Source of the DNA: Saccostrea echinata
Lineage: Eukaryota
Assembly (NCBI RefSeq): GCF_033153115.1
Contig: NW_026889789.1
Span: 2,728,001 to 2,792,000, forward strand
DNA length: 64,000 nucleotides
Direction: 5' to 3'
This document shows positions 46,489-56,201 of this stretch, piece after piece (position 1 is the stretch's first letter; every line of letters begins with the position of its first letter). Below the pieces are notes generated by a model, which was given only the letters and a program-made list of their open reading frames with translations, had not been told where the DNA came from and ran no database searches. The position numbers and the translations under genes are program-made.

Positions 46489-48119
46489 TTAATCTCATTA
46501 ATGAAAAACAGTACAGAAAAGATAAAATATGTACAAAGTTTAAGAACAGAAATATCACATGTTAACATGCCTGAAGAAGGGATATCAGAGTGTTATTAAG
46601 TACATGTATTAACCAAGCGAGCCAACTCTCTGAATTATAATATCATGCGCGGATCGGGGGGGGGGGGGATCCGGACCCCCTGGAATTTGCAGAGTTATTA
46701 AATGTATATACTGAAGCCCCCCACTCCCTTGGAAAAAAAGTCCTGGAACACCGTCTGTGTATAATTTATTATAGTATCCAAAGGTTTAGTAAACACATTT
46801 TGCTAAGTTCACTTGATTAATATTTGTTACGTTATAAAGCATTTCAAATTTCAAAACACATGGATTAGATTGAAAATAATTTGGTAAATACATATTGTAA
46901 CACAAGAGTTCTTTATAGATACATCGGTACATTTAAATAAGTGATGAAATTCATCGCAAATTTCATTGAAGTTACATAATTTACAAATGTGTATTCTCTC
47001 TAGGGATGTTACATGTAAACCATATCCGAGTCTCGTGCTACCCAGTCAGTGTTGGCTCTATGACGCGACCTCTATGTATCGGATGTAGTCATTTATTCAT
47101 AAGAATGTTAAAAGAAAATGCGACAAATTAGTCTAGGATTCGAAACCGCTCCCCCCCCCCCACCCCCCACCACCACCACCGCCCCCAATTCCATTTTGAC
47201 TTACCTTTCCATACTGATCCCCTAAATCCTAGACACTCTGGAAATACATGTATATCTCCTCCCAACCATGTGTAATTACATGTAAATGCAAAAGGTGCAG
47301 ATCTATGTAACAAATAGCGATCAATTAAATAATGCATAAGAGAATGATCTTACAAAACAAGCGTTTCGTAAAAGGTTGGTTGGTAAAGAACCACCGTTCC
47401 AGCTCTAATATTCCCTCTATCATTGTATTGGTTTAAAGGGAATACGAATAAATAGACTGGGGTTATTAGGTAAACATTGTGGAAACCCCCTGAATTTCAC
47501 AATTTAAATTATAGGCAATCGTAACTAATCGGCCATTTCCGTGAACGATAAATAACGGTTTAAATAGATTGACTCACTTCCTTTTAAACATAGGAATGCA
47601 TTAAGGCGGATGTACTGCAATGTTATGAGAAATCTGAGTGGTTAAAAGGGGGAGGAGGGGCAACCAACTGGTCTTCATCTAAACCACGTTTATCTTAAAA
47701 GTAAATACCGGTATGACTCACTTAAAACAAGGGAGGGTGGAACTATGAGTGGGCTTCTAAATAGATCTTTTTTCAGACTTGTACATATTAATACTACACG
47801 AGAAAAACTATAAACTTAAAGAATATTTTATTGAAAATTGGGGTCTTAATTAATTTTGTTATCAGCTTGAGTGTAAAATGGATGGAACCTGGTTTTCACT
47901 GAGAATATCACATGAAGGTATGATGCTTTAGGTTTAATTTTTGTCTCCACCCTTTCATTAATTGAATGGCATGACTGTTAATAACCAGACAGGATATTTG
48001 TCCTTTGATCCAAATGAATATACATGTACGATTTGATTAACTAGACCGAATAATAACAAGATAAAGTATAGTCAGAAGTAAAAGAAATTCAGAGGAGAGT
48101 TGGTGTAAGACTGTTATTT

Positions 48120-49193
48120 AGGAATGACTCTAATTCTTGGCCAAATTATTCGAGTATAACCTGGTTTGGGTAAGTTTACGCTTAAGTTTATAATCCGCGA
48201 AGCGGATTATAAAACAGCGTAAACTGACCCAAACCAGGTCATACTCGAATAATTTGGCAAAGAATTAGAGTCATTCCTTATAATTTAATTTTAAAATCAT
48301 TAAACAACTATGGGTGTAAAATTTCGTTGCTTTTTATTAGTTCAAATTTGCCGCTCCATAATACAACCGTAGTAACGGAAGTAACGGAAGAGATTGGAAG
48401 CGAAGGGAGGTAAAAACTGATACATAGGCCTAGCAGCCTTGTTGTTTGTTTACATGTAGTAAGATCGAATTATTGTTTGAAGTTAAAGGTACATTTATTA
48501 AATCTGGCATTTTCCATGAATCCCGAGGACTGGAAATGAGAGGATTGTATGGATACAGATGATTCAGCTGGTTGTCAGGTGGGGAGGTGTCCCCATACCA
48601 AACCAGGTTATACAGAAGTAATTTGTGTTCCTTTTTGGATATTAAGCAATCAGAGGCTAGAATACAAACAAAATTAAATTTTATTACTATATAGAACCTA
48701 CTTTTAGGTGAATAAGGGATTAGTAGTGGTGATACAGGTATGTTTAGTCATTTTTCTTTTTTTCTTTTTCTTGACTGAAGCTAGGGTGGGGTCACAATGA
48801 GCGATCAAAGTTGTGCAAAGAAATATATAGGAAAATAATTTAATTTTGTTTGTTCTTACCACATGTAAACAAACAACAAGGCTGCTAGGCCTATGTATCA
48901 GTTTTTACCTCCCTTCGCTTCCCATCACTTCCGTTACTTCCGTTATTACGGTTGTATTATTGAGCGGCAAATTTGAACTAATAAAAAGCAACGAAATGTT
49001 ACACCCATAGTTATTTAATGATTTTAAAATTAAATTATAAGGAATGACTCCAATTCTTGGCCAAATTATTCTAGTATAACCTGGTTTGGGTCAGTTTATG
49101 CTTTTTTATAATCCGCTTCGCGGATTATAAAGCGTAAACTTACCCAAACCAGGTTATACTCGAATAATTTGGCCAAGAATTAGAGTCATTCCT
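48120..49193. repeat. Large inverted repeat (~340-bp arms), each arm ending in a ~155-bp palindrome
   Basis: 48120-48464 is the reverse complement of 48854-49193. Palindromes at 48120-48278 (centre GCGAAGC) and 49040-49193 (centre GCTTCGC). Confidence 0.9.
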
Positions 49194-50969
49194 TAAATAT
49201 CTTCAGCAGGCATAATTATGAAAATTTCCTAAGATGTGTCTTAAGACGTGTTGTAGGATATATTACTTAGGACATATCTTAGGAATATCCTAAGATATGT
49301 CTTAGGGTGTAAAACGAAAGTATCTTAGAGATATCTTAAATTAAGATGTCGTAAATTTCATTTTAAGCAGTTTTCGTTCTTTCTTTTTTTGGTAAAACAA
49401 ATATATGTATTACATTGTTCCGATGTCCATATGCCATTATTATGCATGCGCAGATGTAAGGAGTGGATAGGGGGGTCACTGGGTTCGGTCCCCTGGGATT
49501 TTTGGAGTTATTATAAAGACTAGTATTAACATGATTAAGTATATAGTAAATTAACCCCCTAGACAACATGGACCCCTGGTAAAATGGCTAGGAAAGTCAT
49601 ATTCAGGAACGTATTCTGTTTATTTGTTAAGACAAGCGACTTAACCCCCTCCTCCCCCCCCCCCCCCCACACACACACACAAGAAAAGGTTTATCAGGTT
49701 TGGAGAAGTTGGTGGGTTTTGTTTTCCTTGACTGTCAAAAAATATCCGAGTTAAAAATTTTTTTGAGTGGGGGACCCCCCCCCCCCCCTCCGAGATCGGA
49801 AAACGGAAGAAATGCTTGCATCCGCATATGATATGTATTAGTAAATTTAATCTGTAAATGGGCTTTTTCATCGATTTCTATTACGAATTTAGTCCATTCT
49901 TATCCCGATTTCATATATTAAGTTGTAATATATATAACAGAGATACTTGTCTACAATCTCTCTAGTAAGAAATAAACAAATTAAAAAAACACGAAACTTT
50001 ATACATTGTTATATTCATAGATATTTGTATCACTGGATAAGTAAATTAGGAGAAAAAAAAGTTTTGAAGGGGGAATACCAGATTGCAACACCACTATGGG
50101 AAGCATTACCCTAAAACATTAAACTTATCATACACTATCATGACTATAGAGACCGATGGAAATTAAGAATAAAATATATTTTCTAACCATAATTTCTTGT
50201 CGTTGTTTGTCCCTGTATAATCAACATAGATCTCTCTCTCTCTCTCCTCTCTCTCTCTTAAATAATTTTAAAAAAATATATATAACTAAAATAGTTGTCA
50301 AAATGGTAATTTTTACACATGTATACATAATGTTTATATGCATTACAAAAGAGTTTGAATAAAATACTTGAGAACGTTTTAACCTGCGACATGATTACTA
50401 CATCAATTAATGAATGAATTTTCATTTATTACTTTCTCTGTATTCCTTTATTCAGGTACATACTTAAATATACAGATATACAGCACTGTGACACGGCACA
50501 ATGTTAAGTAAACTATATTGATTTGATTCATAAAAGAAATTAATATTTTACAAAAATTGGATTAAATTACATAAACAATGTACATTCAATAATTACTAGT
50601 TGTTTTCCTGGCACCAGCGCTTCGTTGATCACCTAAGATATGTCTTGGGATAACCTCGTCTCCGTCTTAAATTTATAGTAGGACAGAGATTAGAAAAACC
50701 GATATGTCGAAAGTTCGTCTGAAGAGATGTCTTAGTCCTAAGATGGTTTCATAAGCATGCCTGCAGGTCCGTAGAAAGCGGGGGGGGGGGGGGCTTTTTT
50801 TAGCATACGTATTAGTTTGCTATAGTAAATTTTCTTTTAGATGCTGGTTCCCCCCCCCCCCCCCAACTTTTTGTTGTTTTAAGGTCGAGCATTGGAAAAC
50901 TCCAGGATTTGGACATTATTATTATTTTTTTTTTTTTTTTAGGTTTTTCCACCTTTCTGTGGAAAGGGC

Positions 50970-53843
50970 TAGGGTGGGGTCACTATGGGAAACAAAGGTT
51001 AACATAGAAATATATAGGAAAGTTCTTTAAAAAATCTTCACATGAACAGCAAAGTCATGATTGGTCATATTTCTGTGGAAGTGTCCATAGAAAGTGTAAA
51101 TTCAAGATTGTTCAAATCATGACCCCAAAGGTTGGGACGGACCACAATGGGCGATCAAATATTTACGCAGGTACACATATGTAGAATCTTTAAAAATCTA
51201 ATCAAGAACAGTAAAGCAATGATTAGACATACTTATATGGAAGCATTCTCGGTGTTGTTTACATTCAAGATTGTTCAAATCATAACCCCCAAGGGAGGGG
51301 CCAAAATTGGTGATCAAAGTTTTTACATGAGAATACAAAGGATAAATCGTTAAAAATCTTCTTCCCAAGAATAGCAAATCCATGATTAGTCATATTAATT
51401 CAAAAGCATCCTCAGGTAAGGTATCTTCAGATTTGCTCAAATCATGTTCCTTGGGGGTAGGACAAGGTCACAATATAAGATCAAACATGCAGAGAAAAGG
51501 CTTATAAAGCCATGATTAGTCAATGAAATATTTGAGCATCCTCAGGTAGTGTAGGTTCATGTGTGAATAAATCATAACCCCCCTTTCTCGCAAGGGGGGG
51601 GGGGGGTACTTGCAATCACTTATATAATCTTTTCAATGCCAAACTGATTTCTAATTTTTCTACCCAACGTGCTCAGGTGAGCGATGTTGCCCATGGGCCT
51701 CTTATTTGTAAGATGCATAACTCTTACTTCAATACATTCACCCGCTTCACTGCTCTTTAATGAGGATTACTCAGTGAGTGTGATATTGCACGAAGGCTAG
51801 TATTACAGAGTATATAGATTTGCTACAGTAGTAAAAATGATAACGTATGGAAACCCTGTAACGATACGACGTTTTAAAGGAATCGACAAAAAAAAAAAAA
51901 AAAAAATACAAGTATATATAAATTCATTACAAACATTGCTCTTCGACTCCACGTAGAAAATAATTCTCAAAGAGATTAGACTAGTAACCTTCACTGTGCG
52001 CGATATACAAATTTAAAGCGCTTCGCCCATTGGCTGGTAAAAACTCTCACTGACGTAGCATTTAAATATCTCGGGGAAACCAAAACAGATTACAGAGTGC
52101 GGAACTGCAATATCGGTACCTTGTTTTCTCTTTCTAACTAAAATTTCATTGGCAAAAATTAACTGTAAAAGATGTTTTTAAGCCTTTACAAGGAAAAAGT
52201 ATATATTAAAAGTGCTTTAGATACTGATACTCTCGTTGTTTGCTGTACGGGAAAAGTTTAATTTACGAGATGCTGCCTTAAATACATAATTTAAAAAGAT
52301 TGTTATTTCACAGATAAATGCAATCATCGAGAAATACTCCACAAAACTAGGTGACATGGCTGTGACAATATAGATGGAAAATTGATAATTCAAATACCGA
52401 TAGGTTGCAGTCTTCAGCTATCAAAAACCTGAAGAAAATACATTGAAAATATGCTTTCTTATAATAGAGACAGACATAATTTAGTCTATAAAGAGATTTT
52501 GATGTGCATGGAAAAAAAATTAAAAAAAAGAAATAAATAAATAAAAGCTGGCTAACAAACATGTACATGTAAACAGCGATGAAGATAAATGATTGAGCCG
52601 TGTGTTCGTGATTTATCACTAAGACGTCTGCGAATTAAAACATAACAAAAAAAACATAGGTTGGTATTTTTGTCACTCATACGTTAATTATCTACAACAG
52701 ATCCCGAATTCTCATTGGCTGTCTAAATAAAAAGTAGATCAAAGGTCAAGGCGGATATAATTCAAATTGTTTAAAAGACATTGACGAAGAATAAGCGATA
52801 TATGGACTTTCATCATATTTTAGGATCAATATTCCTTTCATTCTTACATATTTTTTTAGTTAGGTAAGAAATGTTTTTTTTTTAAATTCATTTGATGATA
52901 ATTTGATCATCCTCAAGTAGTGGAGATTTAAATTTGTTCAAATATCATGGTCTCAGAGGCAGGGTCACAATTGGGTGTCAGAGTTTGACGTGTGGATATA
53001 TAGCTAAGGATTAAACAAAAAAAGTATCCTTCTCAAGAACAGCAAAGTCATGTAGTGAATATTTAATTGCAAGTTTGTTCAAACCATGATCTCTGGAGGC
53101 AAGTAGTCTACAGCCACATAAAGGGATTAAAGTTTTACATACATGTGTACATGAGCATATATTGAAGAACTGCAGGGTCAAGTTTAATGATATGGTAGAG
53201 TAGATTCAAATTTGTTCTATTCATGACCCCCCCCCCCCCCCTCCGCTGGTAATATGATGGGAATCTAATAACAGATCGAAGTTGTTTTAAATCATACAGA
53301 AGAAAAATTAATAAGTAAGTGTTCACAGGTAATGGAAAATCGTGGCCTTAGGCATAAAGGCGGGGCCACAAATGGGTATATAAAGTTCAACGCGTGAATA
53401 TATAGATTTAAAAAAAAGATCACATTCTCAAGAACAGCAAAGGCATTGTTACATGTAGATATATATTATTGTGCAGACATTTAACTGATAGTGCATATTA
53501 TTCAAGTTTGGTCAAGTCATTACCCCAGGGTGTTGTGTAGGATGGGGCACAATATGGGGAAATCTTTTAATGCAATTATTATGTATAGAAAAAAAATTTT
53601 CTTAAGAACAGAAGAGCTTAGGTGTGATAAACATTATGGCCCATGGGATTCATAAACAGATTCAAGTTTGTTTAAGTCATGACCCCATGCATGTTGTGTA
53701 GGATGGGGCACCATATTGGGATATGTTTTTTTTTATTGCAATGTAGCAAAAAAAAAAAAAAAAAAAAAAAAAATCTCAAGAAGAGCAGAGCTTATGTGTC
53801 TCAGATCAACATACTGTATATTGAGTCCATGGGCCTCTAGTTA
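50970..53843 (+). repeat. Two degenerate Helentron/166-bp satellite remnants (~50970-51706 and ~52905-53843)
   Basis: Diverged TGTTCAAATCATGACCCC and TTCTCAAGAAC units. 3' ends CTCAGGTGAGCGATGTTGCCCATGGGCCTCTT and CCATGGGCCTCTAGTT match the element at 58104. Confidence 0.65.
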
Positions 53844-54409
53844 ACTGTCCCAATTGTAATGATCCTTTGATTTTTTTTCAGGCCAGAGCATAAGAATTTT
53901 AACTAACAACATTTTCTGAAATCAGGAGGCAATTTCTATGCAGGGGAGAGGTAAATACACCAGTTTAACATCCTTCCTGTTACATTATTTTCCGCTTTCA
54001 GCGAAAAAAAAATTAACGTAATTATTTCATAAAGCGCTATACATAAAATATGCAGGTGTGAAGCGTTGTTGATTACCTACCTCATAAATTATGAAAAAAG
54101 GTCATTTCTTACAATTCCCTAAGCTACAAAAAATGTCAAACAACTATCCTCAGATTTCACTATACATTTGACGTCTAGAACAGTATTATGACTTAACAAA
54201 GAAAAAATTCATGCTAAATCATTAGAGTTTATGAGAAATGAACTATTTTATTATATTTCTATTTGTAAAAATTCAATAGAGAAAAATGTTAAATTATAAC
54301 CACTATAAATATTAATTTCTTTAGGATATAAGTATATGTTACATCCTTTTACCTGGAAAAAAGTTCCTCAAAATAAGATTTGCATTTGAGTAAGTAACCT
54401 TTTATATTG

Positions 54410-54495: not shown

Positions 54496-54701
54496 AATTG
54501 ACTATATAAAAACATGTAATCAGACTAAAACTGAAATGCACTTTAAAATTTGAACACATTTAAAAGCAAAACAATCCTTCTAAGCTGAAGGGTTAAAGAA
54601 AGGATGTATTAGTCTAGAATAGCTTAACGATCAAGTATCCTCCCAAGAATTTGTTTTAATGCATTATATATACATGTATGTACAAACTTTAATATTACTT
54701 A

Positions 54702-54791
54702 TTTCAGCTGGCCACCCTTCTGACGAGGACAGGCGAAAGTGTCCGAAACACAGGCATCAGTATCTGTGTAAAGGGTTCACTGTAGCTGAGA
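54702..54791 (+). ncRNA. Type I hammerhead ribozyme
   Basis: Stem I ACCCUU(54714-19)/AAGGGU(54771-76); core CUGACGA(54720-26); stem II GGACA/UGUCC; GAAA(54745-48); stem III CACAG/CUGUG; cleavage triplet GUA(54768-70); 9-bp distal stem I extension (54702-10/54783-91). Confidence 0.88.
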
Positions 54792-56201
54792 ACGAACCAA
54801 GATGGATTTCATCTTTATCATGTTAACGTTGAAGATTATATTACTGAGCTGTCCTGAAAACATTTCATGTTTACAATTTCGGAGGGCAGCTGTAATCAGC
54901 TTTTTTAATACTGTCATTTACATTGTCATTTATAATTTATTAATTAAGTTACCCTAGTATCATTAAAACACAAATTACTCTCTACTTTAATAATCTGATA
55001 ATGATTTATTAGATAATGTGTTACTTTGAGAACGTCAGGAATGTTAAAGATATTAAAAATAGTAACGGAGTGACGTTTTATTTCAGATACGGGCATGCAA
55101 TCATTCCCTTGAAAGTGTCAAAGAGGGCCTTGGTTGTCCAAGAAACAAATCTGAATGGGAAAAACGAGCACAAGAGATGCAGTGTGAAACGTATTCTCAG
55201 AACTGCACAGATAAGTCGTCTTTCGTGTACCATTGCCTTATCAATCCGTGGTCTAATGGCACAATAGAAGTATGCGCACCAAGGATAAAAATTTTTGGTA
55301 AATTTCTATATTTCCTTATCAGTGAATCATGATTTTTTAACACTTTTCAATTGCAATATACTCGTTATTTCAAGTCGGTAATACTTTTTTTGAAATACTG
55401 TACAGTCACAATGTATATTATGTGTCAGTGTGGTATGAAAACTGCTGCTTTATTTATACATGTGCAAGTATCGAATATTAGGCTACATGTTTATCAGATG
55501 TAATAAGATCAAGTTTATAAGGAATTTATCAGTTGACTACCATAAACGAATTGATGTAATTGTTACGTTTTGCCCCATTTAAGACCCTATTCAGCGTTGT
55601 AAATGTAAGTCCTGTGTTGTAAATTATCTAAATATTTAAACCTTTTCTTTTAAAACTCGATCGTAAGATTGAATTCTAACAAAATTGATGGAACAATAAC
55701 TTTGCTTTTGTAGCCATTGCACAGGGCAGCTCAATATAAGCGTGTTTTCAAATATCTTAAAATTCTCAATTATAACGAAAAGATCTTAAAAATGGTGTTT
55801 CACTAAAAAAAAATCATGTGTAAGTTTAATGCAAAGTCTCTGATGACTTCGTACGACATTTGAAGATTTATGATAACAGCAATTGGGTTAATGACTTTAG
55901 AAATGTAAATTTCAATTTACTAGTATATTCAAATTGGTAGGAAGAATATTATAATATCTTTGTGTTTGCTGTTATTTCAATCTTAAACAGTTTATTTGTT
56001 TTAATTAAAAAAAAAATAGCAGAGACCTTACAAGCTCCGAGTAAACTTCTAATTATCATTATGTTCATTGCAGGTAAAAAATGCACTGAATTCAACATCG
56101 GTGGCGCACGTGTACAAACACACTATAAAAAAACGTGTCAATCATGCCCACGCAGGTATTATTCTTCAGAGAGCTACAAATGTAAGTATACAGTTAAAGT
56201 A

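Follow-up and report, generated by a model that had tools for sequence, protein, structure and literature searches.

The locus described here raises the question of what a complete hammerhead motif is doing just upstream of the start codon of an oyster gene, at a place where the splice acceptor of the leader is itself part of the motif's outer helix. The window, by which we mean the whole 64,000-nt stretch of Saccostrea echinata DNA analysed (contig NW_026889789.1, positions 2,728,001 to 2,792,000 of the forward strand, numbered from 1), had been described in an earlier note, made from the letters alone, as holding a solitary type I hammerhead in anonymous host DNA, either a solo retrozyme remnant or a domesticated intronic or UTR ribozyme. 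The note has the nucleotides right but the surroundings wrong.

By the sequence and secondary-structure definition of the type, the window motif is a type I hammerhead, for which self-cleavage is predicted. It has the CUGANGA, GAAA and NUH core elements arranged round a three-way junction, with helices II and III closed and helix I open, and both the G10.1-C11.1 and the A15.1-U16.1 pairs are present; the core is invariant in three paralogs (see below). The complete core and three paired stems reported from the sequence are reproduced by the minimum free energy (MFE) fold of 54695-54800, which is a type I hammerhead and also contains the GCC/UCACUG internal loop and nine further pairs of helix I. 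A type I descriptor scan of both strands of the 64 kb returned a single match, the motif at 54714-54776, in agreement with the earlier statement that the window holds no second copy; in 60 block-wise dinucleotide shuffles three matches reached stems of 3/3/3 or longer and none reached 5/5/5 or longer, and the folding z-score of the motif region is only -1.7. The Rfam check that had been proposed for this motif went the other way: among the hammerhead families considered (Hammerhead_1, HH9, HH10 and RAGATH-1, with the gathering threshold as criterion) none matched at gathering score and none by E-value on 2.5 kb, the best hammerhead match, over 106 nt, being RAGATH-1, whose 13.4 bits fall short of the 56.3 required. 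The motif of the third paralog likewise has no Rfam match, and an RF00163 search of the oyster's own genome gave 0 matches, which is uninformative, as its controls gave 0 too. The internal loop of the pre-mRNA fold differs among paralogs (3x6, 5x1 and 4x2 nt, by our own reading), and a fast, tertiary-stabilised form of the ribozyme is doubtful because the sequences of loops I and II vary among them.

Table. Features of the host gene and of the hammerhead fold, in window coordinates unless prefixed otherwise.
Feature	Position	Strand	Basis or remark
Exon 1, 5' UTR	53882..53950	+	AG/GT boundaries, translation; RNA joint to about 54325
Exon 2, 5' UTR	54325..54389	+	ends in TGA; RNA contigs, translation
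Intron tail with 3' splice-site CAG (54705-54707)	54702..54707	+	also 5' strand of distal helix I
Distal helix I	54702-10/54783-91		9 pairs, two G-U
Exon 3	54708..54891	+	5' UTR with hammerhead, then ATG 54802 and predicted signal peptide
Hammerhead proper	54714..54776	+	the core with proximal helix I and helices II and III; cut predicted after A54770
Proximal helix I	54714-19/54771-76		6 bp
Core CUGACGA	54720-26		
Helix II	54727-31/54740-44		5 bp
GAA	54745-47		
Helix III	54748-54/54763-69		7 bp
GUA triplet	54768-70		predicted cut after A54770
Helix I internal loop 3' side and distal helix I 3' strand	54777..54791	+	MFE fold
Exon 4, Cys-rich ectodomain	55087..55297	+	RNA joints; S. cucullata similarity
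Exon 5, second Cys-rich exon	56074..56181	+	
Probable exon 6 (stalk)	62106..62228	+	tblastn E 0.005-0.03; homology and position, not RNA joints
Probable OTU-like tail exon	G000:C40:2808327, beyond window		homology and position, not RNA joints

Far from lying in anonymous DNA, the motif is exon sequence of a spliced gene, as transcript contigs and translation agree. The contigs come from runs X1 and X3 (one study and one sample, presumed to be RNA) and join 53945/53955 and exon 2 to 54708; at the joints 53948-54323, 54891-55087 and 55296-56073 the ends are GT..AG. They enter exon 3 at 54708, where the loose end before that position equals the tail of exon 2, and in run X2 exon 3 is without coverage. 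The hammerhead starts 6 nt into this exon and its predicted cut falls 31 nt before ATG 54802. Downstream, the product of exon 3 matches residues 1-31 of the S. cucullata protein P0008 at 77%, and exon 4 shares 84% identity with Saccostrea cucullata LOC134273502. Full-length relatives of 416-430 aa have a signal peptide, a Cys-rich part and a hydrophobic segment, and match an OTU-like profile over part of its length (E 8.5e-5, positions 42-95 out of 128), and we infer that the family consists of receptor-like membrane proteins. It has at least 150 members in the oyster's own genome (150 of 273 candidates scored), and its sole matches in a protein atlas are unnamed mollusc clusters (score 0.80-0.81). 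The OTU-like tail exon itself has two matches in the genome among seven candidates scored (G000:C40:2808327-2808677 and C40:3146540-3146860), each lying 3' of a gene whose hammerhead is fully canonical; because these genes are sisters, the co-occurrence is not an independent correlation. The ATG of exon 1 opens a 25-codon upstream ORF (window 53938-54389) whose stop lies exactly at the end of exon 2, and skipping of exon 2 would extend it to 43 codons, through the hammerhead and overlapping the main ATG.

The CAG in helix I doubles as the splice acceptor. Of the nine distal helix I pairs, six draw on intron bases 54702-54707, the acceptor CAG included, and are available only until the intron is removed; joining to exon 2 does not bring the CAG back, since exon 2 ends in TGA. 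Folding models predict that the hammerhead fold is lost upon splicing: its probability is 0.33 while the intron is present and 0.004-0.13 at the two spliced junctions (9 contexts each). Specifically, shuffling the intron tail with the CAG kept left a median fold probability of 0.33 (81/100 at 0.32 or above), full shuffling of the tail gave a median of 0.06 (17/100), and shuffling of the exon 2 tail also gave 0.06 (10/100). A CUG after helix I, able to pair with the CAG, is found in the three structured paralogs and is absent from the decayed one. For two structured paralogs the nearest-neighbour models predict a hammerhead fold probability below 0.01 even with introns. Such models leave out tertiary and Mg2+ effects.

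We suggest, at about even odds, that the motif is a ribozyme that has been domesticated: it would cleave pre-mRNA whose splicing is slow, and splicing would disarm it. As long as the upstream intron is unspliced, the full fold would be armed and self-cleavage of the pre-mRNA likely; splicing would remove the CAG strand of the outer helix and, on the model predictions, largely disarm the ribozyme. A cut at A54770 would part the cap from the ORF, and we propose that the uncapped piece would in consequence likely be degraded. The net effect could be a kinetic race of splicing against self-cleavage that lowers or quality-controls expression. Such a race is suggested by the predicted loss of the fold on splicing, by three spliced contigs that cross the cut site uncut, as expected if the ribozyme in the mature leader is mostly inactive, and by the sole intron-retaining contig spanning the cut site, which carries a C3U change in the core (54720) and, being one contig at a depth of 5.5, counts as anecdotal. 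Two identical-allele contigs of run X1 leave a gap at 54750-54838, which was set aside as a sign of cleavage, as contigs cannot show ends. A stronger form of the proposal, which we put forward tentatively and think has perhaps one chance in three of holding, is that of a splicing timer: the pre-mRNA ribozyme would destroy slow-splicing transcripts, the spliceosome would sever the ribozyme and so license the mRNA, and the paralogs would have tuned or lost the switch.

Neither is the motif solitary, as had been supposed, because three homologous motifs lie on the same contig. The census rested on fetched paralog regions and genome-wide patterns, with 5 kb upstream of 148 other listed paralogs, and found the motif in four of the 150 paralogs examined, always at the start of the same exon; two of the carriers are canonical, one is altered and one decayed. 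All four motifs are in sense orientation, with CUGA 9-12 nt after the acceptor, so that the position of the hammerhead in the host transcript is fixed, in a spliced exon and at the same place in four paralogs. The second canonical motif, found by pattern search, is at G000:C40:3132592, and its gene ranks first by protein (64% identity), a ranking by which this closest paralog was selected independently of the motif. The third, at C40:1631053, was recovered among 29 loci by a two-sequence model not trained on it (E 9e-8). The fourth, a decayed copy near C40:2302234, was recovered by a three-sequence model (E 4e-6) and has A9 changed and helix II lost; the next best scores were E 0.014 and 0.17. 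In an exon 4 tree the four carriers fall within one 22-row group (SH-aLRT 90, 67 columns) and are not resolved as one clade, three changes being needed. The other 18 rows of that group have no motif with filters off, the signal-peptide exon being insecurely located in some of them, and further 10-kb upstream stretches of four of the 18 have none. Metagenome scans gave 0 matches by pattern and two loci by protein, neither with the motif. Four C52 pattern matches, one of which was read, and two C6/C28 matches do not form hammerheads. As 146 of the 150 examined members are without the motif, the element is dispensable for the family.

Two of the carriers have features of their own in this region. 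In the third paralog (G000:C40:1631046-1631101) helix III contains the start codon, and the cut is predicted within codon 3 of the ORF. In the decayed copy (G000:C40, about 2302234) the AUG left from the old core shares the reading frame of the ORF, so that ribozyme sequence may have become an N-terminal extension.

Within the span of these comparisons, namely paralogs and related transcripts, the structure is under purifying selection. The window motif and that of its closest paralog have the same base at 38 of the 39 constrained places in core and stems, against 9 of 22 free positions (P 9e-7); fourfold sites of exon 4 agree at 6 of 14, near saturation. Flanking introns align at only 51-56%, and in a blastn comparison of exon 3 plus upstream intron the hammerhead (54714..54776) is the sole part that aligns. 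The closest paralog contributes identity and one one-sided change that keeps a pair; the compensatory changes are those of the third paralog, which has them in all three stems together with an A.A mismatch at 10.1-11.1, a junction position at which a U.U mismatch is reported in natural hammerheads (PMC3088659). In the three-sequence alignment 43 of 44 cells are paired, with one double-sided change per helix, a level reached by 17 of 500 shuffles and due to changes that all lie on one branch of three sequences. At the transcript level, three related contigs show no difference at any of the 23 constrained places open to comparison, as against 16 of 60 places in the signal-peptide codons; differences were assigned to contigs by depth values, and since none are listed for the roughly 30 nt nearest each contig end, 54708-54737 is poorly tested in this comparison.

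A pattern of this kind might also reflect selection on something other than catalysis. The three-way junction could have been selected as a structure, for splice-site sequestration, as a protein-binding site or as a scanning barrier. The acceptor CAG is indeed sequestered by helix I, transcripts survive uncut and one transcript contig carries a core change; but the unpaired catalytic core is kept in three structured paralogs while the loops vary, which is the pattern expected of catalysis, and we consider a purely structural role improbable. Far more improbable still is a conserved short upstream peptide that merely resembles a hammerhead. For such a peptide it may be said that the net indels from core to cut, of 0, 0, -9 and -12 nt, leave the reading frame intact in each of the four copies, that all four read C-[VI]-[KR]-G between core and cut site by our own reading, and that the core AUG of the decayed copy is in frame with the main ORF; yet that frame is without an AUG in the window copy, pairs of paralogs differ in frame across the GAAAC segment, and structure, not codons, explains the paired double changes.

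Cleavage might alternatively act on the mature mRNA, removing the cap and the upstream ORF and leaving a 31-nt leader to be translated cap-independently, as reported for the hammerheads of fungal RNA viruses. The work on the 5' UTR type I hammerheads of chrysoviruses and fusariviruses describes a long helix III without clear loop-loop contacts, a location close upstream of the start codon, and coexisting cut and uncut RNAs (PMC13725137). In architecture, a type I fold whose helix III is long and which has no obvious loop-loop contact, and in position, the oyster motif matches those viral cases (PMC13725137); an upstream ORF precedes the hammerhead, and the distance from cut to ATG is 31 nt in the window gene and 27 nt in the closest paralog. 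Against this, the sole in-frame ATG of the third paralog's exon lies in helix III, 5' of the cut, so that cutting would destroy it; the fold is predicted to be disfavoured after splicing; we found no precedent for a signal-peptide protein made from an uncapped 5'-OH RNA; and the fast human HH9 lowered reporter output in the same report (PMC13725137). The viruses moreover are RNA viruses without splicing for which cap-independent initiation is proposed, whereas the oyster host is a capped, spliced cellular mRNA. We therefore regard cap-independent translation as quite unlikely here, and return to cleavage of slowly spliced pre-mRNA as the preferred reading.

How the motif reached the gene is a separate matter. 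A remote retroelement origin is likely, and a retroelement probably landed in the ancestor of the small subfamily of membrane-receptor-like genes that carries the motif today. As to its present state, no self-repeat was found within 1.2 kb of any of the four motifs, genome-wide patterns found no dispersed copies, no frame of at least 170 codons lies near the motif, and no RT was found in the window. Matches to four successive patterns were these gene-linked motifs in 2/2, 2/2, 3/7 and 3/25 cases (the last with a control of 36), and a DNA search of the genome gave at least one match. With no dispersed or tandem copies found, the motif is not an ordinary retrozyme or Penelope copy, and the many dispersed copies with shared flanks that the earlier note would have taken as the mark of one did not appear. 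Other hammerhead-core families yielded 52 pattern matches in the genome against a control of 43, and for 30 of these 52 dispersed loci compared with the motif there was no blastn, model or flank match. An 8-nt direct repeat at 54692/54838 was rejected as a target-site duplication, being AT-rich and having its second copy in coding sequence.

The dispersed hammerhead-core loci fall into several multi-copy families. Twenty of the 30 read (L221-L250) have in common a repeat some 430 bp long; RT-like or other long frames often lie next to it, and one such frame has a weak RVT_1 match (E 3e-4, below the curated cut-off). We take these families of about 430 bp to be Penelope elements.

It remains conceivable, though we judge it unlikely, that the motif is now an inert or near-inert exonised retroelement remnant, inherited by gene duplication and persisting mostly because it supplies a splice acceptor and leader. 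The retroelement-associated hammerhead-core families of the genome are possible donors; one of the four copies is decayed and another has a junction mismatch, two paralogs are not predicted to fold as hammerheads, and the spliced transcripts are uncut. Conservation, however, is confined to core and stems, 12-68 nt inside the exon, and extends neither to the acceptor nor to the leader in general, and compensatory changes have occurred in three helices while fourfold sites between the canonical copies approach saturation. Of the two origins first suggested, then, the domesticated UTR ribozyme is supported, and the solo retrozyme remnant is disfavoured as a description of the present state.

The oyster motif is best filed with the domesticated gene-embedded hammerheads, among which its location in a 5' UTR, in an exon and across a splice acceptor is new. 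The reviews consulted list domesticated animal hammerheads in introns and in one 3' UTR, with function mostly unproven (PMC6155905, PMC6765202). They also describe the conserved intronic type I hammerheads of the amniote RECK/HH9 type, with a proposed role in mRNA biogenesis or splicing (PMC6155905, PMC6765202); these resemble the oyster motif in being isolated, conserved type I motifs in a host gene, but they are intronic, while the oyster motif is exonic, in a 5' UTR, with the acceptor in helix I, and its conservation is known among paralogs and not across species, without an Rfam match. The 3' UTR case, Clec2, is likewise an mRNA-embedded hammerhead that lowers expression (PMC6765202), and differs in being a discontinuous type III. 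A hammerhead in a variable multigene family, intact in some members and not in others, is known from SmPoMuc of Schistosoma, where the motifs lie in introns and retain Pol III boxes, unlike the exonic oyster motif (PMC2576457). Perhaps the closest analogy of mode is the intronic HDV-like ribozyme of Cpeb3, whose cleavage is tuned against co-transcriptional splicing and whose blocking raises protein (PMC10919898). That mode is the one we propose for the oyster motif by analogy, with activity shown in Cpeb3 and predicted in the oyster; the Cpeb3 ribozyme is, however, of another class and wholly intronic, whereas in the oyster splicing itself is predicted to dismantle the ribozyme.

Among mobile elements, the non-LTR retrozymes of Mytilus share with the oyster motif a type I topology in a bivalve, and the mussel motif, which also lacks most of the archetypal tertiary nucleotides, is reported to cleave at about 0.1 per min (PMC7229834). 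Retrozymes and Penelope pLTRs are a likely remote source. Their hammerheads otherwise number in the thousands and sit in tandem arrays of 150-450-bp units or next to RT frames, whereas the oyster has no repeat unit, no RT in the window and four gene-linked copies. The Penelope pLTR hammerheads have shared pLTR flanks, a minimal helix III and an adjacent RT/GIY-YIG frame; helix III of the oyster motif has 7 bp. The chrysovirus and fusarivirus motifs resemble it in type, in the long helix III and in lying near a start codon. Among the papers listed by our literature searches, no title or abstract opening described an oyster hammerhead that is gene-embedded or spans a splice site, although supplementary motif lists could include the locus, and we found no description of a splicing-gated ribozyme in the 5' leader of a cellular mRNA.

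With its hammerhead under selection in an exon of the 5' UTR and the acceptor placed within the outer helix, the oyster gene offers a sharp test of whether host-gene hammerheads act by racing splicing, and the four paralogs, two canonical, one altered and one decayed, form a natural control series. The locus is equally suited to testing initiation of the viral, cap-independent type in a cellular mRNA. If confirmed, the race would add a new means by which an animal gene curbs its own output, and a compact design for a splice-controlled self-destruct element.

Elsewhere in the window, the minus strand at 242-15495 carries a type B polymerase, an rve plus chromo integrase, an A32-like ATPase and a BIR-RING frame. 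We presume this element to be Maverick/Polinton-like. At about 48090-49195, the ends look by eye like long inverted repeats, as in a non-autonomous DNA transposon. An array of 4.8 copies of a 165-bp unit occupies 58359-59152, and, by our own reading, diverged stretches of similar appearance lie around 51000-53800.
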